Shown here one piece after another: positions 3,271 to 21,700 of a stretch of 24,000 bases of DNA. The notes under the pieces are model-generated. The model saw nothing but the letters and a program-made list of their open reading frames with translations, was not told the origin of the DNA and made no database searches. The translations under genes were made by a program, and so were the position numbers. Source of the DNA: Oscillospiraceae bacterium. GTDB taxonomy: Bacteria > Bacillota > Clostridia > Oscillospirales > Ruminococcaceae. Position 1 is the stretch's first letter. Every line of letters starts with the position of its first letter. Location of the stretch: the NCBI GenBank assembly GCA_017435565.1, contig JAFSEU010000004.1, forward strand, positions 10,323 to 34,322. The letters run 5' to 3'.

Positions 3271-3289
3271 AATATTATCTCCTTTAAAA

Positions 3290-3943: not shown

Positions 3944-3973
3944 ATTATAACTCTTAATCGTGTTTGTTGTCAA
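3944..3973 (-). promoter_or_regulatory. SigA-type promoter for the SGNH-murD unit
   Basis: Minus strand: TTGACA, 18 nt, TATAAT, located upstream of the ATG at 3901. Confidence 0.55.
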
Positions 3974-4011
3974 CAAGTATTTGTCAGCTTTTCATTCTTT
4001 TTCATAGCATC

Positions 4012-4040
4012 TTGACAACGACCCGCCGCTATGATAATAT
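4012..4040 (+). promoter_or_regulatory. SigA-type promoter for the lipoprotein gene
   Basis: TTGACA (4012-4017), 17 nt, TAATAT (4035-4040), divergent from the SGNH promoter. Confidence 0.55.
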
Positions 4041-4063
4041 GAAAGAAAAAGGAGATGATACCT

Positions 4064-4648: not shown

Positions 4649-4654
4649 AAAAAG

Positions 4655-4690
4655 TCCTCTGAGATGCAAAAATTCTCAGAGGATTTTTTG
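4655..4690 (+). terminator. intrinsic terminator after the lipoprotein gene
   Basis: Perfect 10-bp stem TCCTCTGAGA/TCTCAGAGGA followed by TTTTTTG. Confidence 0.85.
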
Positions 4691-4743
4691 TTCATAACCG
4701 CCCATTTGCGTGAATATCCTTATACAAAAGAGGTGCGCATATT

Positions 4744-5331: not shown

Positions 5332-5855
5332 GCATTACTTCATACATAATGCCCATTACAGCAGCGTTGATTCTCACAATCGGGCTTTTTAAAAAGGTCG
5401 ATATATTCGATGAATTCATAAAAGGCGCAAGGGAAAACCTGAAGACAGGCATTGAGATTTGCCCTGCGCTGATAACGCTTGTTCTGACCATCGGAATCTT
5501 CCGCCAATCAGGTGCGCTGGATATTTTAACACAGCTTATTTCCCCTTTATGCGCAAGAATCGGCTACCCTGCCGAGTGTATTGCCTTAGCAATGATTCGG
5601 CCTATTTCGGGCAGCGGCGCTACTGCTGTTTTTGAAGATATACTGAGCAACTGCGGTGCTGAAAGCTTTGCATCGAGAGTTGCCGCCGTAATGATGGGTT
5701 CATCCGAAACGACCTTCTACACAATTGCTGTATATTTCAGCGTGACCAAAGTCAAAAGGTTGCGTCACACTCTTTTTTGCTCACTTTTAGGTGATTTTGC
5801 CTGTTTTATTGCGAGCTTTGTGCTCGTTAATATGTTATATTCTATAAATTTTTGA
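5328..5855 (+). CDS. spmB: spore maturation protein B
   Basis: The start at 5328 (MSITSY...) overlaps the spmA stop (ATGA). Membrane protein with an IRPISGSGATAVF motif. The spmA-spmB pairing is classical in endospore formers. The ORF-track start at 5274 would overlap spmA by 58 nt and is less likely. Confidence 0.8.
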   Translation: MSITSYIMPITAALILTIGLFKKVDIFDEFIKGARENLKTGIEICPALITLVLTIGIFRQSGALDILTQLISPLCARIGYPAECIALAMIRPISGSGATAVFEDILSNCGAESFASRVAAVMMGSSETTFYTIAVYFSVTKVKRLRHTLFCSLLGDFACFIASFVLVNMLYSINF

Positions 5856-5871
5856 AATAAGAAAAAAATGC

Positions 5872-5900
5872 TTGACAAGTGAATCTCGATTTGATATAAT
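5872..5900 (+). promoter_or_regulatory. consensus SigA promoter for tRNA-Lys
   Basis: TTGACA (5872-5877), exactly 17 nt, TATAAT (5895-5900), ending 10 nt before the tRNA 5' end. Confidence 0.8.
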
Positions 5901-5910: not shown

Positions 5911-5986
5911 GAGATATTAGCTCAGTTGGCAGAGCATTTGACTTTTAATCAAAGGGTCCGGGGTTCGAATCCCCGATGTCTCACCA
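5911..5986 (+). tRNA. tRNA-Lys (anticodon UUU) with encoded CCA
   Basis: Hand-folded cloverleaf. Acceptor GAGATAT/ATGTCTC (one G-T). D stem GCTC/GAGC. Anticodon stem TTTGA/TCAAA with loop CTTTTAA (anticodon TTT). T stem CGGGG/CCCCG with loop TTCGAAT. Discriminator A followed by CCA. Confidence 0.93.
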
Positions 5987-6351
5987 TAAGCTTTTCGTAC
6001 ACTGCAAAATTTCAATTTCAAAAAATTGGAACTTTGCGGTGCGCGAAGCTTTGTTTTTTGTGATTATTTTTATCTATAATTAAATCGTGAGGAACAGATG
6101 ATGAATATCCCCTATCCCTCACGATATCTCAAACAATTAATTATATCCTATTAATCACAAAGCGCAACAAGTGCGAGTTGTATGCGATTTAGGGAATCCC
6201 CTGCGCGTTCTCCCGTTCTTCTTCTCATTCGGCATTAGCCGAACACGGATATTGGGTTTTGCTAAACTGCTTTTACGCCGTTATGCAGCTTCTGATATTA
6301 AGTTGGGTATTAAAAAAATCAAGCCCTCGACATCGGCACAACATCGAGGAC

Positions 6352-6380: not shown

Positions 6381-6504
6381 TAACCACAAGGAATCCTTGC
6401 TAAGTCATTCAGATGTTTGCGCATCTGTCTGATTATGAATCACAAGCTGTTTACCAGACAGTTTGTGATTTGCATGATTTTTCTATATTATATACCGCTG
6501 AAAC

Positions 6505-6533
6505 TTGACTGTCAAGTCCTCAGAGTATATAAT
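6505..6533 (+). promoter_or_regulatory. orphan promoter-like element P2
   Basis: TTGACT (6505-6510), 17 nt, TATAAT (6528-6533). Confidence 0.45.
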
Positions 6534-6630: not shown

Positions 6631-6723
6631 AAAACGTGTCCATTTGGACACGAATTGACGAATATTATAAAATGTACGTTTGTGATTTGTGCAAAGCGTT
6701 CAAAACGTGTCCAAATGGACACG
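6631..6723 (+). repeat. 93-bp direct repeat, copy A, with two GTGTCCA-N2-TGGACAC palindromes
   Basis: It aligns without gaps to 7288-7380, with 18 mismatches in 93 by hand count; the last 23 nt are identical. The palindromes are CGTGTCCATTTGGACACG near 6635-6652 and CGTGTCCAAATGGACACG near 6705-6722. Confidence 0.85.
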
Positions 6724-6736: not shown

Positions 6737-7003
6737 TCAGTTATAGACTTCACGTCTGTGCCCCACAGATAACGCTAAAATAACCAATTTTTCATCTTCA
6801 ATACAACAAATCAGCCGATAATCTCCGATACGGTATCTCCACTGTCCGCTTCTGTTGGCGGTTAAACCTTTGCCGTGCTGCCTCGGATTTTCGCAATCAA
6901 TCAAATTCTTTTGAATCCACGCTTTAATCATCTTTTGCGTGTATTTATCAAGCTTTTTAAACTCTCTGTCAAATACAGCTGTGGTTTCGACCCTGTATGT
7001 CAT
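6737..7003 (-). CDS. type II toxin, RelE/ParE superfamily
   Basis: 88 aa with the characteristic C-terminal pattern WRYRIGDYRLICCIEDEKLVILALSVGHRREVY. It overlaps the upstream antitoxin gene by 4 nt. Confidence 0.88.
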   Translation of the reverse strand: MTYRVETTAVFDREFKKLDKYTQKMIKAWIQKNLIDCENPRQHGKGLTANRSGQWRYRIGDYRLICCIEDEKLVILALSVGHRREVYN

Positions 7004-7221
7004 AAATCAAGTTCCTTCCAAAGCTGCTCGATAGGTACGCTCTTTTTACCGCTTTTCAGATATTCGTTATAGGCTTCATCTGCAACTGTTATATCATATT
7101 CGTCCTCGATTTTTTCAAACAAAGCCCTCTTAAACGCTTCTCCAAGCGACATAGAATGAAGTTTAGCGTAGCTCTCAGCCAATTTTTTTTCCTGTTCAGT
7201 CAGTCTGATAGAAAATGCCAT
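7000..7221 (-). CDS. type II antitoxin, ribbon-helix-helix (RelB/ParD-like)
   Basis: 73 aa. The N-terminal SIRLTEQEKKLAESYAKLHSMSLGEAFKRALFEKI fits an RHH fold and the C-terminus is acidic. ATGA overlap with the toxin gene. Confidence 0.8.
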   Translation of the reverse strand: MAFSIRLTEQEKKLAESYAKLHSMSLGEAFKRALFEKIEDEYDITVADEAYNEYLKSGKKSVPIEQLWKELDL

Positions 7222-7239: not shown

Positions 7240-7274
7240 TAGTACATTGTACTATACATTATGCCGCTTGTCAA
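7240..7274 (-). promoter_or_regulatory. TA operon promoter with an overlapping palindromic operator
   Basis: Minus strand: TTGACA (7269-7274), 17 nt, TACAAT (7246-7251). The perfect palindrome TAGTACA-T-TGTACTA (7240-7254) covers the -10, as expected for antitoxin autoregulation. Confidence 0.65.
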
Positions 7275-7287: not shown

Positions 7288-7380
7288 AAAACGTGTCCAA
7301 ATGGATACAAATTGATGAATGCTACAAAATCGGCACATCAGATTTGTGCAAGGTGTTCAAAACGTGTCCAAATGGACACG
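7288..7380 (+). repeat. 93-bp direct repeat, copy B
   Basis: See copy A. The first palindrome is degenerate (CGTGTCCAAATGGATACA). The second is intact (CGTGTCCAAATGGACACG, ending at 7380). Confidence 0.85.
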
Positions 7381-7559: not shown

Positions 7560-8117
7560 TCAATTTTTACTCATATTTGCAAAAAATCTATCATAATCTT
7601 TCTGAATGATTTTTGTAGTGTTTTCCTTAAATTTAGCTATTTTAGCTTTTGCTCTTGCACCGTCATCTTCAAAATCCCCGCTTTTATCAATTGATAAATA
7701 ATCATCCGTATTTGCAGCAAATTTGTGACATTCCATAGTAAGCTCAGAACGGCACTTGCTGTATCGAAGCCACGTTTCTTTATATGCAGCTAATATTTTT
7801 ATACCATTGAAGATACTGACAAAAGCTGCGCATACAGCTGCTGCAATATTTATCCAAAGCGCAATATCAGATGGTACCGCAGCAGCTATAACATTCAAAA
7901 GACTGATTACAGCAGTGAAAATTATAAGCATACATTCTGAAATACGCCACCAGAATTTATTATAGTCCGAGTATTCAGATAAGTCATTTATATTCTGGTA
8001 AATGTTTTCTATGTATTCTTTATCCGCTGTAATATTGGCTTTCTCTAATGTTTCGTCCCACTTTTTTTGGCAATATCCTTTATAGCCCTCATTTGACTTC
8101 CATTTTTTCTTAATCAT
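7560..8117 (-). CDS. rdrD: SLATT-like 2TM protein (DUF4231-like), last gene of the RADAR-type operon
   Basis: 185 aa. A cytoplasmic N-terminal region is followed by two adjacent TM helices (WWRISECMLIIFTAVISLLNVIAAAV; IALWINIAAAVCAAFVSIFNGIKILAAY). Next comes the conserved post-TM helix KETWLRYSKCRSELTMECHKF. AGGAGAAAG RBS. It starts 30 nt after the upstream gene. Confidence 0.7.
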   Translation of the reverse strand: MIKKKWKSNEGYKGYCQKKWDETLEKANITADKEYIENIYQNINDLSEYSDYNKFWWRISECMLIIFTAVISLLNVIAAAVPSDIALWINIAAAVCAAFVSIFNGIKILAAYKETWLRYSKCRSELTMECHKFAANTDDYLSIDKSGDFEDDGARAKAKIAKFKENTTKIIQKDYDRFFANMSKN

Positions 8118-8147
8118 TTAATCTTTCTCCTACTTGTATAATTTATG

Positions 8148-8927
8148 TTAATTCGACTGAACTCTGATAATATCTTCAAAATTCTTCCATTGATATGTCA
8201 CACCGGTTTTGCCGATAGTAGTGTGTTCAAGATATTTTATCTGTGTTTCACCATCCCACATATTAAAATCAGCTATATAATAACTATCCTTCGTTTCGTA
8301 TATAATTGCATATCTATCATCAATAAACCTATATCTCGACTCATTCTTGGTCAAATTATAGCTCATATGCCAAACAAAGACACATAAGGCCGCCGTAACA
8401 ATTGGCGCAATTACTGCGACCCCTTTAATCAACTTACAGTTATTAATCGTTTCATTTTCGTATAACTTAATAGAATTGTAAATAGCAAGATTCGGATAGA
8501 GAATAGTAATATGAAACATTATTGTAAAAAGAACGAAGTTAAACATAAATGAATGTTCATTATACCTGTTATTTCCATTTAAAAGCAAAAATAAAAGAAC
8601 AGAGGACACAAAATACAACAATGTTATCACCAATATTTTTTTGATCAATCTTAGTTTAGATAATATTATCGGTAAGGGAATAAATATTATTGCTAAAACA
8701 AATATAGAAAACAGAATTGACATTAGAACATCAGCAATTAAATTATCATCAAAAATAGATATTGCTGAATTATCAATTCCAAGGCAATTCAGTTTTGCCC
8801 TTTCAAATATATACCCTATGAATTTCAAAAATGCAGCGCAACTTCCGATAAGTAAAGTTGCCGTCAAGCTTATTGCTTCCTTATTGTTTTTTATATAAGT
8901 CATCATCTTATTAAAAAGCTCACTCAT
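8148..8927 (-). CDS. multi-pass membrane protein (about 5 TM) with a ~70-aa soluble C-terminal domain, function unknown
   Basis: Very hydrophobic segments (LTATLLIGSCAAFLKFIGYIF, LMSILFSIFVLAIIFIPLPIIL, ILVITLLYFVSSVLLFLLL, FNFVLFTIMFHITILYP, VAVIAPIVTAALCVFVW). The ATG at 8927 has an AGGAAG RBS 7 nt upstream. The ORF-track start at 8966 is a GTG with no RBS. Confidence 0.65.
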   Translation of the reverse strand: MSELFNKMMTYIKNNKEAISLTATLLIGSCAAFLKFIGYIFERAKLNCLGIDNSAISIFDDNLIADVLMSILFSIFVLAIIFIPLPIILSKLRLIKKILVITLLYFVSSVLLFLLLNGNNRYNEHSFMFNFVLFTIMFHITILYPNLAIYNSIKLYENETINNCKLIKGVAVIAPIVTAALCVFVWHMSYNLTKNESRYRFIDDRYAIIYETKDSYYIADFNMWDGETQIKYLEHTTIGKTGVTYQWKNFEDIIRVQSN

Positions 8928-9024
8928 ATTTACACTTCCTATATTAAAAATATTTCGATAATACACAGAATTTTACTCTATGTATTATCACAAAAATTTC
9001 ATTTATGCTAAACGACTATTATTA

Positions 9025-11616
9025 TCAATATGCAAAAGATTGCTCATTTCCCATTTTGCGAATTTCATCAAGCCATTTCATAATTTCGAATCGCGAATAC
9101 ATATAGTTACCCTTACTGTCTTTTTTGTTTTCCAAATAAAACAGCAGATATGCATACTCGTTACTTATGCAAGTGGAAAACACACTTTTATCATCAGTAT
9201 TAATCGATACATTAAGCTGCACTTTGCTTGGATCTTTTTTAAGTGCATTATCATAAAAATCAGTAATCGGGTGCTCGCTGTAATCATTGATTGCACTTAT
9301 AAAAACGTTGGAGGAAGGATTTGTTTCAATTCCAATGCTTTCAAGTGAAATATTGCGCTTCATATCATCCTGTATCAGAGAAAGCCCTTCCAAGAAATAA
9401 TCAGGCAGTTTTTCAACGGCGCATTTCTCACCTTTTTCTCTCACTATTTCGCTATAATGATACAAATGATAAAGATAACATGCCTCAAAGCTCTTCCGTG
9501 CTTCTTTCATACGTTCTTTGGTATTACATATTCTATACTCTTGTTTACCGCTGCACCATTCTGAAATAAAACCTTTTTTATAAAGTAATGGATCATCTCC
9601 TCTAAGTAAATATGATAAGTAATAGTGTTGCATATCAAACTTGCATTTATTAAATTCCAAAAACTCTCCTTTCCAAAAACAGTTATATTTCATAGTCTCT
9701 TCCAAAATTTTCTGTACAAATGAAGAATGTATATCATCAGAATATATTATTTGGAAATACCAGTCAAATTTCTCTTGCAAGTAAGAACGGAGACGCGCAT
9801 ATCCGTCAAATTCAATGTTGTGCTCTTGAAAATAATAATACATCCATACTATATTATCCAAAAAAACTTGAATCGGGATTGACAATGGATTCCGTATTTC
9901 ACTATAGTATTTCTCAGGTGGTATTCCGAGTAATGTTGCGTGTCCCAAACGGGAACCCGAGCGTAGATCTAAAAATGTTATCGCTTCGTCAATAGCACGC
10001 AGACCGTCAGCAAGGTCATAGTTATCTTCCCCAACATGATAAGTAGCTTTCAATTGCTGTAAAAGAGATTTATCAATCTGTCGTTTTTCTGCGTCATAAT
10101 ATTGCAGAAAACGAAACATTGGTGCAAACACCTCAGGACGACAGTCCATTTCTTCGCCAGATGCATCTATACCATAAATCCTTTTCGCGGTGTCATAGTG
10201 CAAATCAAAAATGATGTGTGCTTTTTGCTCAATTTCCTGGCGCAAATTATGATGACGACAGAACCCTTCTTGAAATTCTTCAGATTTCTTCACAAAGTGA
10301 AGTGTATAGAAGAAATTTCTGTCTGATTCGAGTGTTCCTTTATGATTTGTTCTACTCAAAGCATCCTCAATTGCGTCGTCATAAACCCGGATAGCCTCTA
10401 TCATTTCGCTACGGCTTTTCTGAGGAGAAATTCTCAGTTCCATTCTATAGATTTTATTGCATTCAATCACGCTGGATATAGTATCCGCGGCAACCGTGCG
10501 TTCATCAGCCCAAGGAATAATACCATCTTTGCGTGCCTGATATTGATTAAAATTATAAAACCCTCTGCGTGAATTGGTCTGAACAAACTCACTATAAAAC
10601 CGATGCTTGAGTATGAGATATAAAAATAACATCTGTTTTATTAATTCATAATCACCTTTACGACAAGCAATTTTCATGAGACAATTATAAAGGATATAAC
10701 GCTCGCCGGAAACAGAAAAATACTTTTGATTCACGTATTGCGCATATCGATGTGCATAATCTATTGTTCCAAGTGAATTCAGCGCATCACACTTTTCTTG
10801 TATTCTCTTTATAGGAAAGGTACAGATAGATTCAGATTCATAAGGAAGAACAGTATTGACAATCAACTTATATAACTCTTTCTTTTCATTCTCCATTTCT
10901 GTAACACTTAGGTATAAAAACAAACGGATAGCTGCAGCTTTTCGCCAAATCAGCTTGAGAGGATACTCCGAACCCTTACATAAAAAATTGTTCAACACAT
11001 CAGACTGAATCTGTTCAATCCACTTTTCATACCAGGCACTTGAAATATTATTCATAAGATATACCCACGAGATATCGAAATACGAAGACGAACCACGCAG
11101 ATGAAAGTGATTATCAGAAATACCGATATCTCTTTGCAGCATCCGATTCAGTTCGTGGTTGTCATGCTCAATACAATAACTCCAATCCATTTGAATTCGC
11201 ATCGAATTCCCTCTGCGAATGTCGTCCTGAACAATTGCAGAGGTAACAAATATTTCCTCACCGATTTCCTTAACTACAGTTCTCCAGATATCTGTATATA
11301 TGTACTTAAAACGATAACGGTTATCACTGCGTACAATCATTTCTCTGGAAAAGTTAAACAGAACATCAAAAAAATCAACCTTTTCCCCTTTCCGCTCATC
11401 ATTGTCATAAAGGCGATCCAAAAGAGCGGTTATATGATTCTGTAACTCCTGAAAATGATATTCCGGAAATACATCAATTAGCATTTTTGTCAGTTCGTTT
11501 CTGCTGAATTCACTGACATTATAGGTGTTAGCTTTCTTCCACAATTCTTTTGTTGTGGTGTTATAATATACTGCACGAAAGAATCGGGCGGAAAATAGAT
11601 TATTGTGACGGGTCAT
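9025..11616 (-). CDS. rdrB: large divergent adenosine-deaminase-fold protein (RdrB-like)
   Basis: All four amidohydrolase/ADA signature motifs occur in the canonical order. These are NHFHLRGS (HxH, nt 11101-11109), YHVGED (HxGE, about nt 10027-10038), RLGHATLLG (GH, about nt 9940-9945) and SINTDDKSVF (TDD, nt 9190-9198). The ATG at 11616 has AAGGAGAG 6 nt upstream. An alternative ATG at 11649 overlaps the rdrA stop (ATGA) but lacks an RBS. Confidence 0.78.
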   Translation of the reverse strand: MTRHNNLFSARFFRAVYYNTTTKELWKKANTYNVSEFSRNELTKMLIDVFPEYHFQELQNHITALLDRLYDNDERKGEKVDFFDVLFNFSREMIVRSDNRYRFKYIYTDIWRTVVKEIGEEIFVTSAIVQDDIRRGNSMRIQMDWSYCIEHDNHELNRMLQRDIGISDNHFHLRGSSSYFDISWVYLMNNISSAWYEKWIEQIQSDVLNNFLCKGSEYPLKLIWRKAAAIRLFLYLSVTEMENEKKELYKLIVNTVLPYESESICTFPIKRIQEKCDALNSLGTIDYAHRYAQYVNQKYFSVSGERYILYNCLMKIACRKGDYELIKQMLFLYLILKHRFYSEFVQTNSRRGFYNFNQYQARKDGIIPWADERTVAADTISSVIECNKIYRMELRISPQKSRSEMIEAIRVYDDAIEDALSRTNHKGTLESDRNFFYTLHFVKKSEEFQEGFCRHHNLRQEIEQKAHIIFDLHYDTAKRIYGIDASGEEMDCRPEVFAPMFRFLQYYDAEKRQIDKSLLQQLKATYHVGEDNYDLADGLRAIDEAITFLDLRSGSRLGHATLLGIPPEKYYSEIRNPLSIPIQVFLDNIVWMYYYFQEHNIEFDGYARLRSYLQEKFDWYFQIIYSDDIHSSFVQKILEETMKYNCFWKGEFLEFNKCKFDMQHYYLSYLLRGDDPLLYKKGFISEWCSGKQEYRICNTKERMKEARKSFEACYLYHLYHYSEIVREKGEKCAVEKLPDYFLEGLSLIQDDMKRNISLESIGIETNPSSNVFISAINDYSEHPITDFYDNALKKDPSKVQLNVSINTDDKSVFSTCISNEYAYLLFYLENKKDSKGNYMYSRFEIMKWLDEIRKMGNEQSFAY

Positions 11617-11645
11617 TTTACTCTCCTTCTTTTTTTCGTATAGTA

Positions 11646-14261
11646 TCATTTAGATTGTCGAATTAATAGCTTATTTATAGTTTTTTGGGGATTTTTAATT
11701 CCGCAACCATTAGAAAAGATTTCGTCGTATTCTTTGTATCTTGAACTATCAATATTTTCTTTTAGGTCACCGCAATACTTTTGTACTATAATATGATTTC
11801 TAAACATTTCTGAAAATCTACAACTATCTTCAGTAAGGTGGTAAACATCATCATTTTCTTTCAATTTCTTGTAGATTATTTCATATAATTTTTGAATTGT
11901 TTCCAATGGTGTTCTTTGGTTAGCTTTTGTATCTCTCAAATTCATTTCGCTACTATATAGAATATAGTAAACCGCTCTTTTGATAACATTATATGCCAAA
12001 TCCGTATGCTTAAGGAAAAACCAAAGGATATTACTTTGTTGTAATGATGTCTGTAATTCTTTCATCAACCCTGTTACTACAGAATTGATATCATCAACAT
12101 TTGCATCAATGTTGGAATGACGTAAAATGGCAGTCAATAGCTCTGATATCGAATAAACTGTATTTCCAGCGTCATCACATTTGCTTCGGTATATATATGA
12201 TAATTCATTTATAAATTTCATATTTGTAAGACGTTCTTCAGCACACAATGAATTTATAATAAACGAAGTGGGATCAATATGATTTTCTATATGATATTCT
12301 GTTGTTATGTAGTTCTGGTTCACAATATATGGTTCTCTCGTCGAACGTGATGACATAAGCAATAATAATAATAAATCATATACAAAAAACCGAAACTTAA
12401 TATTTTCTGTATTTAAAATTAATGTGCCATTTGCATCTTCATCACAAAAATCACAGAATGCTTCAGGATAAATCAATGTATCGAGAGAGCCTTCAAATAG
12501 ATCTTTGCACCAAGTTCCTAACAATGTATATCCGAATATATCTCGTAGGTTACGATAATTATCTTTTTTTAGAAAATAGTCTTCAGTTGAACTACTATTT
12601 TTCCATTTTTCATCTTCTACACACTGAGGTAATGAGAAAGAAAAAGATGCCAGAATAAATCGGATTAACTTTTGATCCATTAGACCGATTCTTGAAGCAC
12701 TGTATAGGATTCTGAAAAGCTCTCCAAAACTATAATTATCAATCACATATCGATTTTTCTCTTCATTAAAGAAATTTTCACCATAAATACTAACTATACG
12801 TTTTTGTTCGTCTTCTGAGGTCAAACAATTATAGTAATATTCCCATATTCTTTTTCCACGACGATCGATAGGTTCAGCAAGAAATTCTCTAATTAATTTC
12901 TCTTCTCTTTGAGAAAAATCATACTCAGGAAACAATTTAAAATATAGGTAATCCAACAAAATTTTCACATTTGCTTTCCGACTAAGTAGAAGCGTTATAT
13001 CAGTGCTTTCTGAACGTTTTAAGGATGCAATATCCTTCATCTGGTAAATCATATAAAAGATGTCATATAGATTTCTGAGGCTATCGGGTTCCATAAAGTG
13101 AAATTTATTTCCTTTAGCATCTAAATAAACCTGCGTCCTATCAGCAAGTATTATTAAAACCAATTCCTTTGGACTTACGGCATAATCCGCATCCATTCCG
13201 TTTTCTTCTAATTTCTTAAATAATATACTATGCTTTAATGCAGGAAAATTCTTTCTGTATTCATCAAGCTTTGCTGATGTTCCTAAGTTTATACGTACAG
13301 GTGTTAAAGCACGATAGTCATACTTTCTCCATGACGGCATAGTGATTCTCATATCAGATGGAATAATCTTTCTGAGGAAATCATGTGTATGTTCAAATGC
13401 AAGGTGAAGGTTTTGTTTGTTTTTTTCTTCAGTAGTACTCAAACGCAAAAAAGTTTCTTTCTGCAACGATGCTGTCAACACCGGAAGATTAAGTGTAACC
13501 ATCACGATCATATGTGGAATCATAAGATATTGGTGTATACACTGCATAATACGCATATGATTCTGCCTAGACATATCAATATCATCGATACAAATAATCA
13601 GATGCATATCATTAGTGCTACTGTTTGGCTCAAATAATTCTTTATGAAAATTAGTGTATTTTAGCACTAAATTTGTGAACTCTTCCCTAATACTATATCT
13701 ATCTGAAAGCTTTTCCATAGAATTATATGAAGAAGTGAGATTATCATTGCACTTAAGACTCACATAATGTCCGTAAATATTGCATATATCTTCTTTGATC
13801 ATTCTCGCATTATCATAGCGTTCCTTTTTGTACGGAAAATCTTCACGTTTCGATTTCTCATCAATCTTTTTGAACATGCTTGAAAGAATAATAAGAAAAA
13901 TATCTTCGGTTTCATCAAGGATAGCCGCATTGATATATGGCAACTGGATAAAACAATTTGATATTTTAACTTCATCGGTATGCTTAACATCCGATAATGA
14001 ATCTGCAACCGATAACATTGCCGATGTTTTACCGGTTCCTCGTCTACCCATAAAAGCTATTACATTATGTATTTCATCTTGGTGAGTTATGCGCTTACTG
14101 GTTGCACATATTGTCTCGACCAATCTAAAAGCTTGCGTATAAGTCTTATTTAGGAATCCATCATCATTCATAGCATCAATCATTCTTCTTTGAATTCCAC
14201 GATTTAGCAAGCTCTCAAAAGGTATTCTGAGTTCATTCTGCATTTTTATCCGTCCTTTCAT
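11646..14261 (-). CDS. rdrA: large P-loop ATPase (RdrA-like)
   Basis: 871 aa. Walker A MGRRGTGKTS (nt 14022-14048). Walker B LIICIDDIDM (nt 13572-13601). A long helical C-terminal region has no other motif I recognise. An alternative start at 14243 (MQNEL...) has a weak AAGGA RBS. Confidence 0.75.
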   Translation of the reverse strand: MKGRIKMQNELRIPFESLLNRGIQRRMIDAMNDDGFLNKTYTQAFRLVETICATSKRITHQDEIHNVIAFMGRRGTGKTSAMLSVADSLSDVKHTDEVKISNCFIQLPYINAAILDETEDIFLIILSSMFKKIDEKSKREDFPYKKERYDNARMIKEDICNIYGHYVSLKCNDNLTSSYNSMEKLSDRYSIREEFTNLVLKYTNFHKELFEPNSSTNDMHLIICIDDIDMSRQNHMRIMQCIHQYLMIPHMIVMVTLNLPVLTASLQKETFLRLSTTEEKNKQNLHLAFEHTHDFLRKIIPSDMRITMPSWRKYDYRALTPVRINLGTSAKLDEYRKNFPALKHSILFKKLEENGMDADYAVSPKELVLIILADRTQVYLDAKGNKFHFMEPDSLRNLYDIFYMIYQMKDIASLKRSESTDITLLLSRKANVKILLDYLYFKLFPEYDFSQREEKLIREFLAEPIDRRGKRIWEYYYNCLTSEDEQKRIVSIYGENFFNEEKNRYVIDNYSFGELFRILYSASRIGLMDQKLIRFILASFSFSLPQCVEDEKWKNSSSTEDYFLKKDNYRNLRDIFGYTLLGTWCKDLFEGSLDTLIYPEAFCDFCDEDANGTLILNTENIKFRFFVYDLLLLLLMSSRSTREPYIVNQNYITTEYHIENHIDPTSFIINSLCAEERLTNMKFINELSYIYRSKCDDAGNTVYSISELLTAILRHSNIDANVDDINSVVTGLMKELQTSLQQSNILWFFLKHTDLAYNVIKRAVYYILYSSEMNLRDTKANQRTPLETIQKLYEIIYKKLKENDDVYHLTEDSCRFSEMFRNHIIVQKYCGDLKENIDSSRYKEYDEIFSNGCGIKNPQKTINKLLIRQSK

Positions 14262-14747
14262 ATTTTAAGTCATCTTTACTTCTAAACTTGATGGCTATTT
14301 CATATCGGTAATCTCAAATTTCTTGCTCTATCAGCCATTTTCTGTTATCAATTAAATAGTGCTTTTTAAGTAAACTCTCTATGATAACAAGCATAGTTCT
14401 ATGATTCGTCTAAACTGTTTTATTAGACATTATTTATCGACTAATTCTATTGTGAATTGAGCTACAACTGTGATACAAGTATGTAAAAAATAAGTTTACT
14501 CTGTTGCACATTACAAAAACAAAAGTTTAACTTATTATCAAGAGTAGAACCGATATATCTAATTTTCACCTTCTACTATATATATCGTTGATTTTTCTTA
14601 AAATGATTAAAAAAAATGGAAAATTCGGCAAAATTCTACGTATTGCACAAAACGCTTCACAATTTTTAATGCAATATGTCGGGACGATTCCTATCCAACA
14701 ACCGATTTAAGCAAACCAGAAATGATATTAGGTCAATGGTAGATATA

Positions 14748-15989
14748 TCAGTGGCTCGGCACAACCCCCACAGCCAATGCCGCATATTTGTCAATATCAA
14801 TATGCTTCTCATCTGGCTCAGTAAATCCACCCGGCGTATATCCAACAGCCAATTCTTCAAATTTTTCAAGATTGTAGCTGTGTTCTCTTTCAATGACCTT
14901 GCGGTTCGGCGCAATACCGATTGCAAGTGCGGCAAGCTCATTGATGTCATAGCTATGCTCTCTTTTGGCGGCCTTGCTCGCTGAAACGGTATAGTTCATC
15001 AAGCAGGTAAGCGCATAGTTCTTTAGATTGCAGATGTTATCCCGTTTCAGAACGTTCTCGCAGATATCGGCAATATCGGACACACTCAGAGCTGCAATTT
15101 TCTCGATGATTTCTGTTTTCGGGCACAGCTCGCCGCCAACCCACATATTTTTTCTTTTTGTGCTGACTGCCTCTTTGAGCGCCGTTATGATTTTTTTATG
15201 GCGTGATTTATAATTCTCCAAAGACAATTTTTGTGATATTTGGTCTCTCAAATCCTCAGAAGAGATATAAATATAATTATCTAACTTAGAATTATTTAAT
15301 TTAGTGGTAAAAATCACACTTTGGTCTTGACAATTTTCACACGTCGGAATTTCCTTTTTTACATCACGCCTTGGCAAAAAAGAATCCGCATTTTCGGTCT
15401 TTTTCGCCTTGATTTTGGAAAGCTTGTCCGAAATTATGCGAAGTGTCATTTTTGCCATTTTTCCTGTAAGGCTCAAAATATTGCCCTTAGCGCTTCGGCG
15501 CACCTCGATGAGCCGTTCACGCTCAAGCGCAGAGAGCAGCTCACACGCCTTTTTGTTTCCGCAGGAAAGTGCCGATTGAATTTCCGTATTCTTAAATGCG
15601 CAGAACGTTTTGAGCGAGCTTAAAATTCTCGATGCAATAAAGGCATACAGAACGGCGCAATCGTTCCCTAAACTTAGCGCACCTTGCAGAATCATCACAA
15701 ACTGTCCGTCAATTTTCTTTATGTAATAGCGATTTCTGCCGCAGGATGTTATGAATCCGTAATTAGTAAGATTTTTGAGTGCCGAAAGGGCTGTCTTGCG
15801 TGAGCAGCTGAGCATTGTTGCCGCCGAATCGGGTGAGCAGAACACATACGGCTTGCCTTCTGCGTCCGTATATCCGTTGGCAAGAGAAAGCGAACGACGG
15901 GAGTGCAGCAGCATAAAGAGGATTTTCGCACGGCTGCAGAGTAATTTGTTTTCCAAGATTTCCTTGTGCATTATTAAAAATTTTGTCAT
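14748..15989 (-). CDS. RepA_N-type replication initiator-like protein (winged-helix N-terminus)
   Basis: The N-terminal pattern is typical of Firmicute RepA_N proteins on plasmids and ICEs: ...LLCSRAKILFMLLHSRRSLSLANGYTDAEGKPYVFCSPDSAATMLSCSRKTALSALKNLTNYGFI. A second similar wHTH-like module follows. The C-terminus carries three tandem ~25-aa repeats. Confidence 0.7.
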   Translation of the reverse strand: MTKFLIMHKEILENKLLCSRAKILFMLLHSRRSLSLANGYTDAEGKPYVFCSPDSAATMLSCSRKTALSALKNLTNYGFITSCGRNRYYIKKIDGQFVMILQGALSLGNDCAVLYAFIASRILSSLKTFCAFKNTEIQSALSCGNKKACELLSALERERLIEVRRSAKGNILSLTGKMAKMTLRIISDKLSKIKAKKTENADSFLPRRDVKKEIPTCENCQDQSVIFTTKLNNSKLDNYIYISSEDLRDQISQKLSLENYKSRHKKIITALKEAVSTKRKNMWVGGELCPKTEIIEKIAALSVSDIADICENVLKRDNICNLKNYALTCLMNYTVSASKAAKREHSYDINELAALAIGIAPNRKVIEREHSYNLEKFEELAVGYTPGGFTEPDEKHIDIDKYAALAVGVVPSH

Positions 15990-16085
15990 TGAAATACATT
16001 CCTTTCAGATATGGCGCAAAAACGCAGAAAAATTGCATTGAAATATGCAACTAAAAACGTTCACATTTTACGAACAAATAAAAAA

Positions 16086-16112
16086 AGGCGCAGAAGTTAA
16101 ATTTCTGCGCCT
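16086..16112 (-). terminator. intrinsic terminator after the RHH gene (bidirectional shape)
   Basis: Perfect 10-bp stem AGGCGCAGAA/TTCTGCGCCT. On plus it is flanked by AAATAAAAAAA upstream, which gives the T-run on the minus strand, and by TCGTTATTTCTTTTT downstream. Confidence 0.8.
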
Positions 16113-16166
16113 TCGTTATTTCTTTTTGTGCCGATTGGTCTTGTGTAAGGGGGGGAACTGTGCCGG

Positions 16167-16568
16167 TTAATCTATCAGCTCTGAGAGTCTGAAGGCTCTG
16201 TTATTCATCTTGATAAAATCAACTGCTTTGCGGCGGAAGATTTCAACCTGCGCAGGTGATATCTCAAGCTGCTCGGCCAATATCTGCGATACAATCTCAA
16301 GCTCGATAGCAGTCGATGACAGCACCTGATTTGTCTTTGTGTTTATGCGCTGCTCGACAAGGGCAAGGCGGCTGTCGAGGAGCTTCACAATGTCCTCGTT
16401 GATAAAACTCGCCTTGTCGCTCATATAGCGGTAGTCACGGTAGAATTTTAAGGCTGATGTTACGATGGACGTAACACTCGCACCTTCATCCTTTGCAATT
16501 TTTGCAATGTCAATCATCAAATCCTCGTCAATTCTCAAGGTAGTTTTTACTGTGTTTTCTGTAGACAT
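16167..16568 (-). CDS. ribbon-helix-helix (CopG/MetJ-like) DNA-binding protein; possible relaxosome accessory factor or regulator
   Basis: 133 aa. The N-terminal TLRIDEDLMIDIAKIAKDEGASVTSIVTSALKFY fits a beta-alpha-alpha RHH fold, followed by a coiled-coil-like C-terminus. Strong GAAGGAGAGG RBS. Confidence 0.6.
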   Translation of the reverse strand: MSTENTVKTTLRIDEDLMIDIAKIAKDEGASVTSIVTSALKFYRDYRYMSDKASFINEDIVKLLDSRLALVEQRINTKTNQVLSSTAIELEIVSQILAEQLEISPAQVEIFRRKAVDFIKMNNRAFRLSELID

Positions 16569-16622
16569 AAAAATGACCTCTCCTTCTCAAAAAATTCGTT
16601 TTGTCAAGGTTTGCAGGATAAA

Positions 16623-16881
16623 GGAATATGGCAAAAGTGCCATATTCCGTCACAGCAGTCAGCAAAGCTGACTGCACTTTTTTCTTTTGTTCTCGGATAA
16701 AAACTGAATTTTACAGTTATAAAAATTTGTATGGCATTTTGTATGGCAAATTCTTTTTCAGAAAATGCGATTTGCCATACAAAAACGTGAAAAGCTCCGA
16801 TTTTGCTTTATTTGTGTGTATGGCTCGAATATGGCACAAAGTAAAACAAACGGCTAAAGTTAGCCATTTGTCTGTATGGCA
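16623..16881. repeat. intergenic array of TATGGCA iterons and inverted repeats (candidate oriT, iteron or operator region)
   Basis: There are six direct copies of TATGGC(A/T), at 16627, 16730, 16742, 16819, 16830 and 16875, and two inverted copies, at 16638 and 16773. A perfect 11-bp IR GGAATATGGCA-N4-TGCCATATTCC spans 16623-16648. A perfect 9-bp IR GCAGTCAGC-N3-GCTGACTGC spans 16655-16675 and is followed by a T-run. A perfect 13-bp IR TTGTATGGCAAAT-N18-ATTTGCCATACAA spans 16739-16782. Confidence 0.7.
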
Positions 16882-18696
16882 TTAATCAAACATACCTTTA
16901 GTGAGTCTGCCCTTGGTTTTGCCCTTGATTTTTGCACTTGAAAGGTAGTTTATCCGCCCGATTTTTACCGTTTTTGTGTCATCAAACGGTGGCAGATTTT
17001 TAACCGAATCGCTCAACATCGGCGCTTTGATTTTGCAAGGGAAGGAGCCCGCTTTTGTCACAATCCAGGTGCCGATTGGAATACGTGTCAGCTCGTCGGG
17101 CGACATTAAAGGCTTGCCAATCATCGACTTTGTAACGCTGCGCTTGCCGCTTGATTTGCTCTCTGAAGCGGAGAGTACCGTGCGGTTTCCAAGCAGCTTT
17201 GAAAGCGTGTTTGCAGTCGTTTCCGAGCTTGGCGAAACTCTTGAAAACATCATCATCTGGACTGCGTCCCTGATGATTTCCGATATCTCTCTGCCGTAGA
17301 TTTTTGATAGCTGAGAGAGCGACTGCAGGGATAATATGAAGCGTATTCCACGGGAACGTGCGGCGGTGATGAGAACGTCAACGTCCTTAATCGGCGGCGT
17401 GTTGCCGAACTCGTCCCATACGCACAAAACGTTCCTATCAAGCCTTGATGAAGCATTACTTTCTGCCTGTGCTATCAGTTCGTTCATTAAGCTTCGGATA
17501 AACAGCGACGCAAAGAAATGTCTTGTCGTGTTATCGTCGGGACAGATGATATATATTGCCGTCGGATTCTTGATGAAATCCTCGCTGTCAAATTCAATGC
17601 TGTGCGTGCATATCATCTGCTCAAGTTCAGCATCAATAAAATCTACAAGATGAGCAAGAGCGCTTGAGAATACGTTCATTGATGTTCTGCTGTCGGCACT
17701 TGTCGCAGGACCGACGTAGTTGATTATTCTGTCATCATCAATAAATTTTAAAAGACCTTCGAGCCTTGATTTCTGCACAGTTGCAGTCGAGCCTTCCTCA
17801 AGACCGTTAAGCTCAACAATGAGCCTGAAAACCGATATAATATGCCTCTCGTCACTTTCTCCGTAAATGCTCACCAGCAGAATCATTCCCGTGACCAACC
17901 CCTTTGAGGTATCGTCAAAAAAGCTCTCGGACGATGATTTGTGCGTGTTTATGTTTGATATAATCGAGTTTGCGAGAATTTTAGCGTGTTTTTCTGCCAA
18001 AGCGTAAGAAATAATGCGTTCCTCGTCCGTTTCGGCAGTCTTGTAGCGGTCGATTGCATTATTGACGTTTATCATCAGATTGTAGCAGTAGGATTTCAGC
18101 GGATTTCTGAAATCAAGATACGGCGTTTTGTAGCCTAAATTTCGCAAAGCTCCGCCCGTTGTTTTCAGGCATTCGCCCTTGTTATCAAGAACAATCATTG
18201 AAGCGCCGCCAAAATTAGCCGGCTGAGCATTTCGGTGACACTTGGCATTGTAGATAATATTTGCGTTGATAATACATTTTGTCTTGCCCGTTCCCGGAGG
18301 AGCAACAAGAATCACGCTGTCCTCGGTTGTATCGACTATCCAGATATGCTTTTGTTTTGCAAGCACAATTCCGCTTTTTTGCTCTCTGCCCGGTGCAACA
18401 TAGGTATAGACCTTGCGGCACTCTGCGTCGGTTGCAAACCTTGCGCTGCCGTGCTGATTGTCGCCGACCGTTCGTGATTTTGTCTCATTCAGCGTATCGG
18501 TATCCCACAGATACACGATAAATCCTACGCAGATTGACAAAAACAGCTTCATAGCAACATTTTGGGTAAGCGCAAAAAGAAAAAGGCGGATATCAAATCC
18601 GCCTTTAAAGCTGTTTGCACTTGTCAGAAATGTCATTGCTATGTAGGTTATCAGCGCCGATATTGCGGCAAGCACTGTTTTTTCACTATTTTTCAT
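16882..18696 (-). CDS. type IV secretion coupling protein (VirD4/TraG/TraD family)
   Basis: N-terminal TM helices. Walker A VAPPGTGKTK (nt 18277-18303). Walker B-like VLCVWDEFGNTPPI. Size is about 600 aa. The ATG at 18696 has a GAAAGGGTG RBS; the ORF-track start at 18708 is a GTG. Confidence 0.85.
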   Translation of the reverse strand: MKNSEKTVLAAISALITYIAMTFLTSANSFKGGFDIRLFLFALTQNVAMKLFLSICVGFIVYLWDTDTLNETKSRTVGDNQHGSARFATDAECRKVYTYVAPGREQKSGIVLAKQKHIWIVDTTEDSVILVAPPGTGKTKCIINANIIYNAKCHRNAQPANFGGASMIVLDNKGECLKTTGGALRNLGYKTPYLDFRNPLKSYCYNLMINVNNAIDRYKTAETDEERIISYALAEKHAKILANSIISNINTHKSSSESFFDDTSKGLVTGMILLVSIYGESDERHIISVFRLIVELNGLEEGSTATVQKSRLEGLLKFIDDDRIINYVGPATSADSRTSMNVFSSALAHLVDFIDAELEQMICTHSIEFDSEDFIKNPTAIYIICPDDNTTRHFFASLFIRSLMNELIAQAESNASSRLDRNVLCVWDEFGNTPPIKDVDVLITAARSRGIRFILSLQSLSQLSKIYGREISEIIRDAVQMMMFSRVSPSSETTANTLSKLLGNRTVLSASESKSSGKRSVTKSMIGKPLMSPDELTRIPIGTWIVTKAGSFPCKIKAPMLSDSVKNLPPFDDTKTVKIGRINYLSSAKIKGKTKGRLTKGMFD

Positions 18697-18741
18697 GGCT
18701 GAGTGCACCCTTTCTCATTTTAAATTTGGCACCACCGCCTT

Positions 18742-21700
18742 TCACACCATCAAAAAATTTGCCGCTTCAGGTATGCTGTCGATATTCTGTGCATTGTCCT
18801 GTACGTTTTGTTGCGTTTGCTGCTGCTTTTGTAATTCAAAAGATATACCCATTTCCTCGGCGGTATCATCAAACTGCTTTTCAACGAAAGAATATGCCTT
18901 GTGCACTCGCTCGAAGGACTCGCTTAAATTGTGGTCTTGCGGGATTTTTCGATAGCTTTGCGCCAAGTGGTGCTTGTTGGTTTCGCTCAGGTTATCCAAA
19001 CCAAACTTAGAGGCAAGCTGTGCAGACAGGCAGTCAGCCTCAAACTCGCAAACACTAACACTTTGAGTGGTGGTTTTATGCATAAGAGCGTGTGCAAGCT
19101 CGTGCGACATTGTGTGCGCCAGTTCTGTGTCATTCAGCTTGTCACTCAGCACGATTTTGTCCTCTTTAGGTGAATAATATCCGTGCAGGGATATGGAATT
19201 TACATCTTCAACCGAAACTGTTATGCCGTTGTTTTCTGCAATTTGCCGCAAAACCTTGTAGATATCATTGTGTTGTTTCGATTCAAAGCCTTTTTCAAAA
19301 AATTTCGGATATTCACTCGGAGGACAGTTCGTCTGCGAAATATCGAAAACATTGAATGCTTCAAATCGCTTTTTCACCCAGGTTTCGATTTCTCCATTGG
19401 CAATGGCGGCTTTTTCAAGGCTCGAAGCCTGAGATACCTTTTTGACGTTGCCGTTTTCGTCCTTAAAATACTCGCAAAATGCAGGCTGCAGCAATTGAAT
19501 CGCACCCTTTTTGATTACCTTATGCCCCATATCCGCCCATTGCTTATAGGTTTTCACAAAGGTCGCGTGTGGATTCTGAGCGTAGATTCTGAGCTGATTT
19601 TGTGCAGAATACTTCGTAAATTTTGCACGATACGCCATATATTCGGCAATCGTCGAAGGGTCGAGCTTGAAGCTTTCGCCGATATCGACAACGCTTCTGT
19701 CCACAATGTCTGATTTAATCGCACTTTGCTTGATATCGATTGCTTTTGCTTTGGTATTGAGCGCATTGTGCTTTTCAATAAAGCTTTGAACATCAACTGC
19801 GCTAAGCCTTGCCGATGATAGCTTGTAGTCACCGTCAGCGGAAATTTTAATCAGCTTGTCTGTCTTGACGCACAGCGGAGCTTCAAGTTTATTTTTTTCA
19901 TTACACGAAATCGAAACGTGAGTTTTTGCATCAAAATCACCCGATGAAACAGCAAAGCAGGAAAGTGAATCCTTTCCTGCTTCGATAACGACGTATTGGT
20001 TTGTGATAGAGTTTTCATTTTTGATTTGCAGGATATCTCCCGTAAAGTATTTTTGGGACATAGATTGTTCAGTCCTTTCAATTGTATTTTCGCTATTATA
20101 TTGTATTGCTATCGGATCTTGCAACTTCATATCGAAGTTTTCGGCAACATCTGTGTTTGATATAACATTATCGTTATCTTCGGATATTTCTTCTTCAATT
20201 TCCAACAGCTCACTAAGTTCTTTAAGTCTTGCACTTTTCTCTGCAAGTTCTTCAGATTGCGCAAATGGTTGATTTAACTGTTCCTTTGCTTCCTGGAGCT
20301 GAATGTGCAGAGAATCGAGTGATGCTATTGCGTCTGTATAGTGTTTTCCTATCATTCCTAAAGCATTGTTTATTCTGCGTATGTTTCCTTGTGCGTCAGA
20401 GCCGAGCGTTATCTGATAAGTTCTCTCTCGGTGCAGGTCAAGATAATGCTCATTTGCAAAAATATCATATGAAACATACATATCAAAGCCTTTATATGTT
20501 CCGACTGATAGTTTCGTACCGCCTTTGCACATACTACAGCAAGCTATCAATTCCTCCCCGCATTCTGCTTTATCGGTAAAGGTTTTGCCGTTAACAACCA
20601 TCTCAAAATCATCATTATCGGCAAAGGTGCGTATATGCTCTATGTCAGAGCGAAGTCCTTCTATTTTGATTTCTGCGCTGCGGATTCTTTCGGGCAAATG
20701 CTTCATCACTTGATTTTCAAGGTTGTACATTTCGTTTCTGTGGTTAGCTTCAAGTGTTTTAAGCTTTGCAACCGAAATTTCCAGTTCCATTTTTTCCTTG
20801 ATGAGAGGATTGCCTGCGCACAAGGCCTTTACTTCGGCATACGACAGCGTAGCTTCGTCTACATCCTCACACGAACGCACAGGCGATTTGCTTGACATTA
20901 TCTGCGATATAAAACGCTGCTTGTTTTCGATGGTTTGATACAGATATGCATCAAAGGTAGCTTCGGTAACATACCTGTATATCTCAACAACATCGTTTTC
21001 ATTGCCTTGACGGATAATACGTCCGTGACGCTGTTCCAAATCAGAAGGGCGCCACGGACAATCAACATCGTGAAGTGCGATAAGCTTGGTCTGAACATTG
21101 GTTCCTGCACCCATTTTGGCGGTTGACCCCATAAGTATTCTTACTTGTCCGCTGCGCACTTTGGAAAACAGATCCTTTTTCTTTGCTTCGCTATCTGCGT
21201 TATGGATATATTCAATTTCAGCTTTCGGTACACCTTTTGCAATCAGCTTGCTTCGGATATCATCATAAACATTAAAAGCTCCGTCGCTTTTCGGAGTGGA
21301 AAAGTCGCAGAAAATAAGTTGTGTAGATTTGTTCTCTGCGGAATTCTGCCATATATTGAATACATTATCAACGCACATATTGACTTTCGTTCCGCTTTCA
21401 TCGGGCAGCAGAGGATTTATCATTCGCTGGTCAAGACCGATTTTGCGTCCGTCGTTTGTAACCTTGAGCATATTATCTTCTTCGGGCGCAACAAGCTTGT
21501 CGTGTATGCGCTTTGCCCTTTCGGAAAGAGCCTTTACCATTTGCTTTTGATTTTCTGTGGGTTTTACGACGATATTATGATATTTTGCTTCAGGCACAGG
21601 AAGATTGAGCATATCAGATGTTTTTATATCAGCCGTTTCCCGAAATACATTCATTAGTTCGGGCAGATTTGAAAACTTTGCAAATCTTGTCTTTTGGCGA

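Follow-up and report, generated by a model that had tools for sequence, protein, structure and literature searches.

RADAR systems, which combine an AAA+ ATPase, RdrA, with an adenosine deaminase, RdrB, were first described in three forms, according to the summary of Gao et al. (2020) in PMC7699616: rdrAB alone, Csx27-associated and SLATT-associated. All the RADARs characterised so far are anti-phage systems and both active sites are needed in them; that of E. coli RdrB is formed, according to the structure paper, by H152, H154, H498 and H530 together with E501, and the double change H152A/H154A abolishes the conversion of ATP to ITP. For RdrA, the conservation reported in the literature is confined to the ATPase domain, with 22-25% identity. 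A RADAR of a Firmicute has already been solved and tested, and a published census of 270 RADAR systems lists Clostridium sp. ASF356, with a pair of 1000 and 894 amino acids (aa), as well as two Lachnospiraceae (3-1 and A4). Here we analyse a related locus within a stretch of 24,000 nucleotides (nt), called the window throughout, from an Oscillospiraceae bacterium (assembly GCA_017435565.1, contig JAFSEU010000004.1, positions 10,323-34,322 of the forward strand). The best explanation, which we hold with considerable confidence, is that positions 7560-14243 of the minus strand encode an anti-phage RADAR of the SLATT-associated form, low in GC and borne as cargo by an integrative conjugative element (ICE) of a gut Oscillospiraceae bacterium, at the end of the element nearest to tRNA-Lys.

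The core of the locus is formed by two neighbouring maximal open reading frames (ORFs) of the minus strand, 11646..14261 (871 aa) and 9025..11649 (874 aa), just as the initial annotation of this DNA had reported; given the local AT-rich base composition, 870 stop-free codons would occur by chance with p ~5e-32. The same annotation had the stop of rdrA overlapping or abutting the start of rdrB, with the ribosome-binding site of rdrB inside the 3' end of rdrA, and on these two points the evidence leads elsewhere. The better-supported starts are likely M7 for rdrA (14243, 865 aa) and M12 for rdrB (11616, 863 aa): gene calls of 865, 863 and 259 aa are used in identical loci of other assemblies, M1 of the 863-aa form of rdrB is an invariant column in the alignment of 34 homologs, and an AGGAG stands 6 nt 5' of the ATG at 11616, while inspection of the sequence finds no Shine-Dalgarno motif before the ATGA overlap at 11649. 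The stop codon of rdrA occupies 11646-11648; since the supported rdrB start lies at 11616 with its AGGAG just upstream (Table 1), the ribosome-binding site of rdrB falls in a 29-nt spacer 3' of the rdrA stop, and the two genes are probably closely spaced without overlap. The extent originally proposed, 9025-14261, holds for the rdrA/rdrB core but misses two downstream genes, one for a protein with five predicted transmembrane (TM) helices, hereafter the 5-TM gene, and one for a SLATT protein, with which the unit has four genes, rdrA-rdrB-(5-TM gene)-SLATT. This complete four-gene locus is found identical in three other assemblies. Moreover, an Oscillospiraceae metagenome-assembled genome (MAG) encodes a protein identical to that of rdrA, and loci L005 and L006 encode an identical rdrB; the best match of RdrB in the protein database reaches only 78%, a figure that we attribute to a limitation of the index and not to biology.

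The deaminase is a homolog of RdrB, divergent in sequence and unambiguous in its homology. It matches the NCBIfam RdrB profile (NF041744) with an E-value of 2e-49, residues 39-870 lying on positions 16-845 of the 850 of the profile, and the PADLOC RdrB model with 8.5e-30; a phmmer search of the PDB returns only solved RdrB chains (8fnv, 8fnw and 8hr7; E 9e-23), and Pfam A_deaminase covers residues 765-834. The catalytic His tetrad, the Glu and the DD pair are all invariant across the 34 homologs, in keeping with the motif series that had been listed, in the order stated, together with the Walker motifs of the ATPase, which are likewise present and invariant among 54 RdrA-like homologs. They correspond to the known active site: H170, H172, H527, E530 and H559 align with H152, H154, H498, E501 and H530 of E. 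coli, and the motif around the catalytic glutamate, YHVGED, matches TYHVGED in 8fnv position for position. A stretch of 355 residues separates HxH from HVGE. An AlphaFold2 model built on the alignment of homologs has a mean predicted local distance difference test (pLDDT) of 90.2 and a predicted template modelling score (pTM) of 0.91; its top eight Foldseek matches in the PDB are all RdrB chains, with E-values from 2e-26 to 1e-23, template modelling scores (TM-scores) of 0.66-0.76 and 870-920 aligned columns. The next matches, 21 orders of magnitude behind these chains, are ordinary adenosine and adenine deaminases (4e-5) and Cad1 (~4e-4), and TMq is ~0.26 against ordinary deaminases. The predicted structure also has the architecture specific to RdrB, a split deaminase core that would be extended by the three large insertions building the dodecamer. 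Because profile, alignment and structure matches agree, the four motifs can be taken as an adenosine-deaminase active site within the enlarged architecture of RdrB.

Two other immune proteins, Cad1, the CARF-deaminase of type III CRISPR systems, and KomA of Kongming, are also makers of ITP or dITP with the adenosine-deaminase fold, and the deaminase of the window has a weak match to the CARF_ADA model of PADLOC (7e-6). An identity with either was rejected: the window contains no CARF, HAM1 or SIR2, and Cad1 structures are retrieved at ~4e-4 versus 2e-26 for RdrB. Neither a CRISPR array nor cas genes are present in the window.

The ATPase is a homolog of RdrA, much more divergent than RdrB, and does not constitute an equivalog by the criteria of NCBI. 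Its best NCBIfam match is RdrA (E 4e-15, 55.3 bits), followed by Orc1/Cdc6 at 9e-5. There is no Pfam match, nor a PDB match in a single-sequence search, but the family profile built from the 54 homologs has significant PDB matches only to the three distinct RdrA sequences that have been solved, that of Streptococcus suis, 8fnu, at 2.2e-13 and those of E. coli, 8hr7 and 8fnt, at ~6e-13. These matches cover the ATPase core, residues 67-316, and the Walker motifs of the family align with those of the solved chains. The AlphaFold2 model (pLDDT 85.4, pTM 0.76) retrieves RdrA chains as its top 20 PDB matches in Foldseek, with E-values from 6.5e-13 to 1e-9 over ~900 aligned columns and the S. suis protein as the best; the first match of another kind is ORC/Cdc6, at 8e-4, which is the nearest outgroup given for RdrA in the structure paper. 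In the model, helices 121-210 are inserted between strand 2 (103-106) and strand 3 (219-226), and helices 259-299 between strand 4 (251-257) and strand 5 (305-307), the same strand 2-3 and strand 4-5 positions at which that paper puts the 'crown' and 'insertion 2' of RdrA. Hence, the features that distinguish the RdrA fold are all found in the model: the crown insertion, the insertion after sensor 1 and an alpha-helical C-terminal lobe, the fit of the latter being loose.

The C-terminal half of RdrA, otherwise variable within the clade, holds two invariant motifs. One comprises G384, H388, P392, L395 and R396 (GNKFHFMEPDSLR, residues 384-396, window ~13074-13112) and is kept also in the relative from Bacteroidota; the other comprises D754, Y757, K761 and R762 (HTDLAYNVIKR, residues 754-762, window ~11976-12002). 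Judged from the sequence, these motifs could form a sensor or an interaction surface.

Among the described systems, the closest one for the ATPase is the RADAR of S. suis SS993 (8fnu; tested in PMC9994260), another Firmicute, whose RdrA is the best PDB match both by profile and by structure, with TM-scores of 0.43-0.46 in the latter case. This system shares with the window the order of the genes, the large size of both proteins and the Walker motifs. Conversely, identity in the structural alignment is only ~12%, sequence similarity does not extend beyond the ATPase core, and in the window two further genes come after the rdrAB pair. The RADARs of E. coli P0304799.3 and Citrobacter rodentium (RdrA 8fnt and 8hr7; RdrB 8fnv and 8fnw) share with the window the fold of RdrB, including the oligomerisation insertions, an identical His tetrad with its catalytic Glu, and, for RdrA, both the fold and ORC/Cdc6 as the nearest outgroup. 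They differ in that structural alignments give identities of only 16-17% (RdrB) and 11-13% (RdrA), and in that they are two-gene rdrAB systems, while the window adds the SLATT and 5-TM genes, an anaerobic gut Firmicute as the host and an ICE as the carrier.

Several results weigh against assigning the locus to RADAR, or against the larger unit that we propose. Both proteins lie far under the equivalog cut-offs of NCBIfam, RdrB with 168.7 versus 800 bits and RdrA with 55.3 versus 600 bits (NF041743), and the RdrA of the window is without any PADLOC match at E <= 0.01. Globally, the RdrA model agrees with the solved RdrA chains at a TM-score of no more than 0.32-0.46, and for this reason the homology of its C-terminal domain rests on a long and loose alignment. 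Assembly state, substrate and phage protection are all extrapolated from homologs less than 20% identical. Furthermore, the role of SLATT is uncharacterised for any RADAR in the literature covered, and the hairpin and promoter-like site that follow rdrB (Table 1) may leave room for the 5-TM and SLATT genes as a separate unit. As to the cut-offs, the whole clade probably lies far under that for NCBIfam RdrA, since the best E-value of any member is 2.9e-20; the NCBIfam RdrA model detects 38 of the 54 members, and PADLOC RdrA models eight. On the other side, the homology of the two large proteins to solved RdrA and RdrB holds at the levels of sequence and predicted fold, the catalytic residues of ATPase and deaminase are all intact, and the profile and structure searches place the two proteins with RdrA and RdrB instead of in unrelated families. 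The gene order agrees with these results, rdrA lying directly upstream of rdrB in 24/24 related loci with space for the two genes. The RADAR identity first deduced from motifs and architecture is thus backed by profiles, predicted structures and gene order.

With regard to its subtype, the locus belongs to the SLATT-associated form of RADAR. In this form (rdrD), as recounted for Gao et al. (2020) in PMC7699616, rdrA and rdrB are followed by the gene for a SLATT membrane protein, as they are in the window, and the same layout is seen on the Aureibacter plasmid pAT1 and in several members of the clade. The 185-aa protein of the window, in which two TM helices are predicted, exceeds the cut-offs of NCBIfam SLATT_1 (58.7 versus 41 bits) and Pfam DUF4231 (31.7 versus 24.7). 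PADLOC yields no match to an rdrD model, and no pairwise similarity is detected between the SLATT proteins of the window and of Aureibacter; placement in the subtype reflects layout and SLATT domain, and the SLATT gene of the window is a putative ortholog of the published rdrD. The Csx27-associated subtype (rdrC) is not that of the window; only the distant locus L033, the most divergent one, has a weak Csx27 match (4e-4) after RdrB.

The presence of the 5-TM gene in the window, unrelated and wedged between rdrB and SLATT, departs from the SLATT-associated layout as far as this is given in the source just cited, and poses a question: Do the two downstream genes belong to the RADAR system, or do they merely adjoin it? 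If only rdrAB were RADAR, the 5-TM gene and SLATT would be an independent two-gene membrane module, for abortive infection or simply as cargo. The 97-nt spacer after rdrB, with its hairpin, T-run and promoter-like site, would suit such a module; these elements may act as an attenuator or an internal promoter. The 5-TM gene is also the segment of lowest GC in the cluster (0.296), and among five sampled contexts of its relatives none holds RADAR while two look defence-related: one relative is the last gene of a tight cluster of SduA_C (Shedu nuclease) and DUF2971, another adjoins an AAA_15/21 ATPase. The distribution of SLATT tells a different story. Over much of the clade a SLATT gene follows RdrB, as in loci L001, L009, L012, L015, L017, L020, L024 and L027, and the same holds on the Aureibacter plasmid, with weaker matches to SLATT_1 after RdrB in Lachnospiraceae loci and to SLATT_4 after RdrB in a Bacillus MAG, the subfamily (SLATT_1 or SLATT_4) differing by locus. 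Across this deep divergence, the spacing of the homologs that come after RdrB ranges from an 8-nt overlap to 17 nt. The SLATT of the window shares 62% identity with the C-terminal portion of a 473-aa protein encoded after RdrB in the closest relative (L001), 49% with the product of the SLATT gene lying 6 nt after RdrB in L009, and 22-31% with others. Since the window SLATT is homologous to genes that abut RdrB in relatives, SLATT travels with rdrAB, and the 5-TM gene, the one unrelated gene intervening in the window, seems to have been inserted where rdrB and SLATT were ancestrally joined. We thus regard the idea of an independent module as quite improbable, and retain the four genes as one SLATT-associated RADAR locus.

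The 259-aa protein encoded by the 5-TM gene has no match in Pfam, NCBIfam or PADLOC. Its status as a true orphan, suggested by a word-index search that found only the protein itself, was rejected after an exhaustive phmmer search recovered ~40 distant relatives with 25-31% identity, which define a small unnamed family (P0196-P0234, loci L034-L040; some with an N-terminal extension of ~170 aa). From their gene neighbourhoods these may be defence-associated membrane proteins. Two other candidate roles were discarded: that of a recurrent RADAR accessory, as RADAR was present in 0/5 of the sampled contexts, and that of Csx27 (rdrC), for which the three databases above gave no match. We also considered that the ORFs of 272 and 185 aa, which share the same frame, might be one interrupted gene, as a relative has a single 473-aa DUF4231 protein; this was rejected in favour of separate genes because the stretch between them contains three in-frame stops and a second AGGAG, and because homology to the 473-aa protein is limited to the C-terminal SLATT portion of the latter.

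Other loci of the clade show further variation at the same position. A soluble domain of ~235 aa starting with MPxFILHxLHG occupies the rdrB-SLATT position in two loci, free in one (L015:7956-8672) and fused to SLATT in the other (L001:13254-14675), with 42% identity between the two; in L012:12679-13410 the position is taken by a 243-aa ORF with four TM helices, the N-terminus of which resembles a zinc ribbon by eye only. Outside the SLATT/DUF4231 portion, these intervening parts have no Pfam or NCBIfam match. In a Bacillus sp. MAG (L027:11054-12929), two SLATT_4 genes follow RdrB, and the second, of 418 aa, has a weak C-terminal match to a nucleotidyltransferase (ANT(9)-like); it could be a SLATT-nucleotidyltransferase fusion or part of a neighbouring signalling system. 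A variable partner beside a conserved SLATT module is the sole pattern emerging from this analysis that is undescribed in the literature we reached.

How would such a system work? By analogy with the RADARs of E. coli, C. rodentium and S. suis (PMC9994260), RdrA would form a heptameric AAA+ ring, active as an ATPase, which detects the infection and attaches to the dodecameric shell of RdrB. Once activated, RdrB would carry out massive conversion of ATP and dATP to ITP and dITP, and the poisoning of the nucleotide pool would block phage replication and arrest or kill the infected cell. More tentatively, abortive infection might be reinforced by a membrane-disrupting arm, supplied by the two-TM SLATT protein and perhaps also by the 5-TM protein, and the system could protect the host of the element and hence the element itself. 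In a different scheme, RdrB activated by RdrA would make ITP or dITP as a second messenger instead of a poison; SLATT, with or without the 5-TM protein, would be opened or activated by it and be the real killing effector. Such a scheme draws on Kongming, in which dITP is a proven immune messenger and whose authors report RADAR-like modules linked to a dITP-responsive KomBC effector; SLATT, moreover, is defined as an effector family of nucleotide-signalling systems, the protein of the window matches SLATT_1 above the cut-off, and its homologs keep their close spacing after RdrB over deep divergence. Yet RdrAB alone protects E. coli with toxic amounts of ITP and overexpression of RdrB alone is toxic, many clade members are without a recognisable SLATT gene, and the 185-aa protein has no recognisable nucleotide-binding domain. 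We consider this scheme unlikely, therefore, and maintain poisoning of the nucleotide pool as the predicted mode of action. An intermediate possibility, to which we would give only a small chance, is that in SLATT-type RADAR the inosine nucleotides ITP and dITP are both pool poison and the ligand that switches on SLATT, the variable partner tuning or anchoring the response.

Turning to the distribution of these proteins, the family of the ATPase comprises ~150 clusters among 5.8 billion proteins, all unnamed or labelled as 'hypothetical'. In reference genomes, the clade is almost wholly confined to gut and rumen Clostridia, namely Oscillospiraceae, Ruminococcus, Lachnospiraceae, Eubacterium, Roseburia and Hungatella, with one Gastranaerophilales MAG and one Bacillus MAG outside this class. 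The RefSeq plasmid pAT1 of Aureibacter tunicatorum, of the Bacteroidota (L041, 199132-205458), carries a complete RdrA-RdrB-SLATT set, in which the RdrA-like gene has an hhalign probability of 99.8% (E 5e-30) and the RdrB homolog 30% identity; the Prokaryotic Genome Annotation Pipeline (PGAP) calls the three products hypothetical, hypothetical and SLATT domain-containing protein. Matches on plasmids of Bacillus cereus, Cetobacterium, Pantoea, Rhizobium and Salmonella are 'hypothetical', too.

Eight sequenced plasmids, including three conjugative ones, carry RdrB relatives, whereas 50,697 phage records yielded none, so that carriage by phages was rejected. This mobile distribution, along with the position of the cluster among element genes and beside a ParE toxin-antitoxin pair, could be thought to indicate that the cluster serves the conjugative element itself, as a module for addiction or for the exclusion of rival plasmids and ICEs, or else that it is an inactive relic. 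Every characterised RADAR, though, acts against phages, and decay does not fit with catalytic residues that are all intact, two full-length ORFs and a locus found identical in several independent samples. Service to the element or inactivity appears to us extremely improbable, and an anti-phage RADAR remains the favoured explanation.

The genomic setting fits with the RADAR cluster being cargo at the tRNA-proximal end of an ICE. Positions 1-5900 contain housekeeping genes with 41% GC (dehydroquinase, DAHP synthase, Mur ligase, GDSL lipase and nucleoside-recognition proteins) and are followed by the tRNA-Lys gene, while the GC content is 30-36% in the four-gene cluster and 42.5% in the element backbone. 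The accessory surroundings noticed initially, with a toxin-antitoxin module and conjugation genes, have indeed been recognised as a ParE/DUF6290 pair, a RepA_N protein, a type IV coupling protein and a giant SNF2/ArdC/M78 protein (Table 1). The window contains no integrase gene, nor any repeat that could be a second attachment (att) copy of the 3' end of the tRNA. The stretch 5911-6060 holds the tRNA-Lys and, after it, a long hairpin with a T-run resembling its own terminator, and the transition from chromosome to element falls between 5987 and ~6630. At the other end of the window, a minus-strand ORF of 1746 aa (18742-23982; see also L005:1-5502) runs to the edge. It is the C-terminal portion of a protein of 2755 aa, in which an Eco57I-like methyltransferase is joined to an SNF2/ResIII helicase, an M78/IrrE-like peptidase and an ArdC N-terminal domain. 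Giant anti-restriction proteins of this methyltransferase/SNF2/ArdC/M78 type occur on conjugative elements.

Other features of the non-coding DNA were observed around the cluster. The ParE/DUF6290 cassette is flanked by a direct repeat of 93 nt (6631-6723 and 7288-7380, 81% identical), and both ends of each repeat carry the 18-bp palindrome CGTGTCCAnnTGGACACG, giving four copies in the window versus 0.01 expected; the pair of palindromes at 7292-7380 closely precedes a near-consensus promoter of the antitoxin gene (7274..7246). The repeats and palindromes could serve as operators or terminators, or mark the borders of a mobile cassette. Between the tRNA-Lys and this cassette, at 6487-6533, there are two overlapping and opposed matches to the sigma-70 promoter that are nearly perfect, TTGACA-17-TATAAT on the minus strand (12/12) and TTGACT-17-TATAAT on the plus strand (11/12), the former without an obvious downstream gene. 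At the head of the cluster, the region between the RepA_N gene and rdrA is unusually long, very AT-rich and without a convincing ORF, and its promoter-like matches are weak; an RNA element in this leader was rejected, because Rfam matched nothing except the tRNA across the whole window.

Table 1. Coordinates of the features of the RADAR locus and of its surroundings in the 24,000-nt window (residues of RdrB numbered on the 863-aa form)
Feature	Position	Strand	Remarks
tRNA-Lys(UUU)	5911..5986	+	chromosome/element junction; ARAGORN; Rfam tRNA 72.9 bits
ParE toxin and DUF6290 antitoxin	6737-7003, 7000-7221	-	directly downstream of the cluster; Pfam ParE_toxin 4e-15, DUF6290 4e-28
SLATT gene	7560..8117	-	185 aa, two TM helices; RdrD-type accessory; own AGGAG ribosome-binding site
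5-TM protein gene	8148..8927	-	259 aa; five predicted TM helices; C-terminal tail ~70 aa; between rdrB and SLATT
AT-rich hairpin	8956..8990	-	16-bp stem with 3 GC pairs, then T-run; inside the 97-nt spacer from rdrB to the 5-TM gene
Promoter-like site	9011..8984	-	overlaps the hairpin at 8956..8990; consensus match only
rdrB	9025..11616	-	RADAR adenosine (ATP/dATP) deaminase by homology; 863 aa from M12; maximal ORF to 11649
INTDDK	9187..9204	-	C-terminal adenosine-deaminase D808/D809; aligned with SDD of 8fnv
RLGHAT	9934..9951	-	fourth zinc-binding His, H559; = E. coli H530; aligned with RLGHC of 8fnv
YHVGED	10024..10041	-	third zinc-binding His, H527, and catalytic E530; = E. coli H498/E501
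NHFHL	11098..11112	-	first two zinc-binding His, H170/H172; = E. coli RdrB H152/H154
rdrA-rdrB spacer	11617..11645	-	29 nt; AGGAG ribosome-binding site at 11623-11627
rdrA	11646..14243	-	divergent RADAR AAA+ ATPase; 865 aa from M7; maximal ORF to 14261, 871 aa
Walker B LIICIDDIDM	13572..13601	-	residues 221-230; D226, D227 and D229 invariant in 54 homologs
Walker A GRRGTGKTS	14022..14048	-	residues 72-80; nine residues invariant in 54 homologs
rdrA upstream region	14262..14747	-	486 nt, 29% GC; presumed promoter and leader
Conjugative-element backbone	14748..23982	-	RepA_N 14748-15989; VirD4/TraG-type T4 coupling protein 16882-18708; C-terminus of giant protein

The novelty of the locus is limited, considering that the SLATT subtype has been known since 2020, by the account of it cited above, and that the published census already includes RADARs of gut Clostridia; the understanding of what RADAR is remains unchanged. 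What the locus brings to light is a systematic gap in the annotation of RADARs outside enterobacteria: the whole branch of gut and rumen Clostridia, with its ~150 protein clusters, is unnamed and appears as 'hypothetical protein' in GenBank and RefSeq. As the PADLOC models of RdrA match only 8/54 members of the clade and miss the protein of the window, censuses of defence systems in the gut microbiome probably undercount RADAR. The locus is, in addition, a compact natural example of SLATT-associated RADAR with an extra membrane gene on a conjugative element, and a reasonable construct for studying the contribution of SLATT to RADAR and the possibility that inosine nucleotides are signals as well as poisons. 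Were the latter true, RADAR would become a module of sensor and signal synthase that feeds interchangeable effectors, in parallel to CBASS, Thoeris and Kongming.

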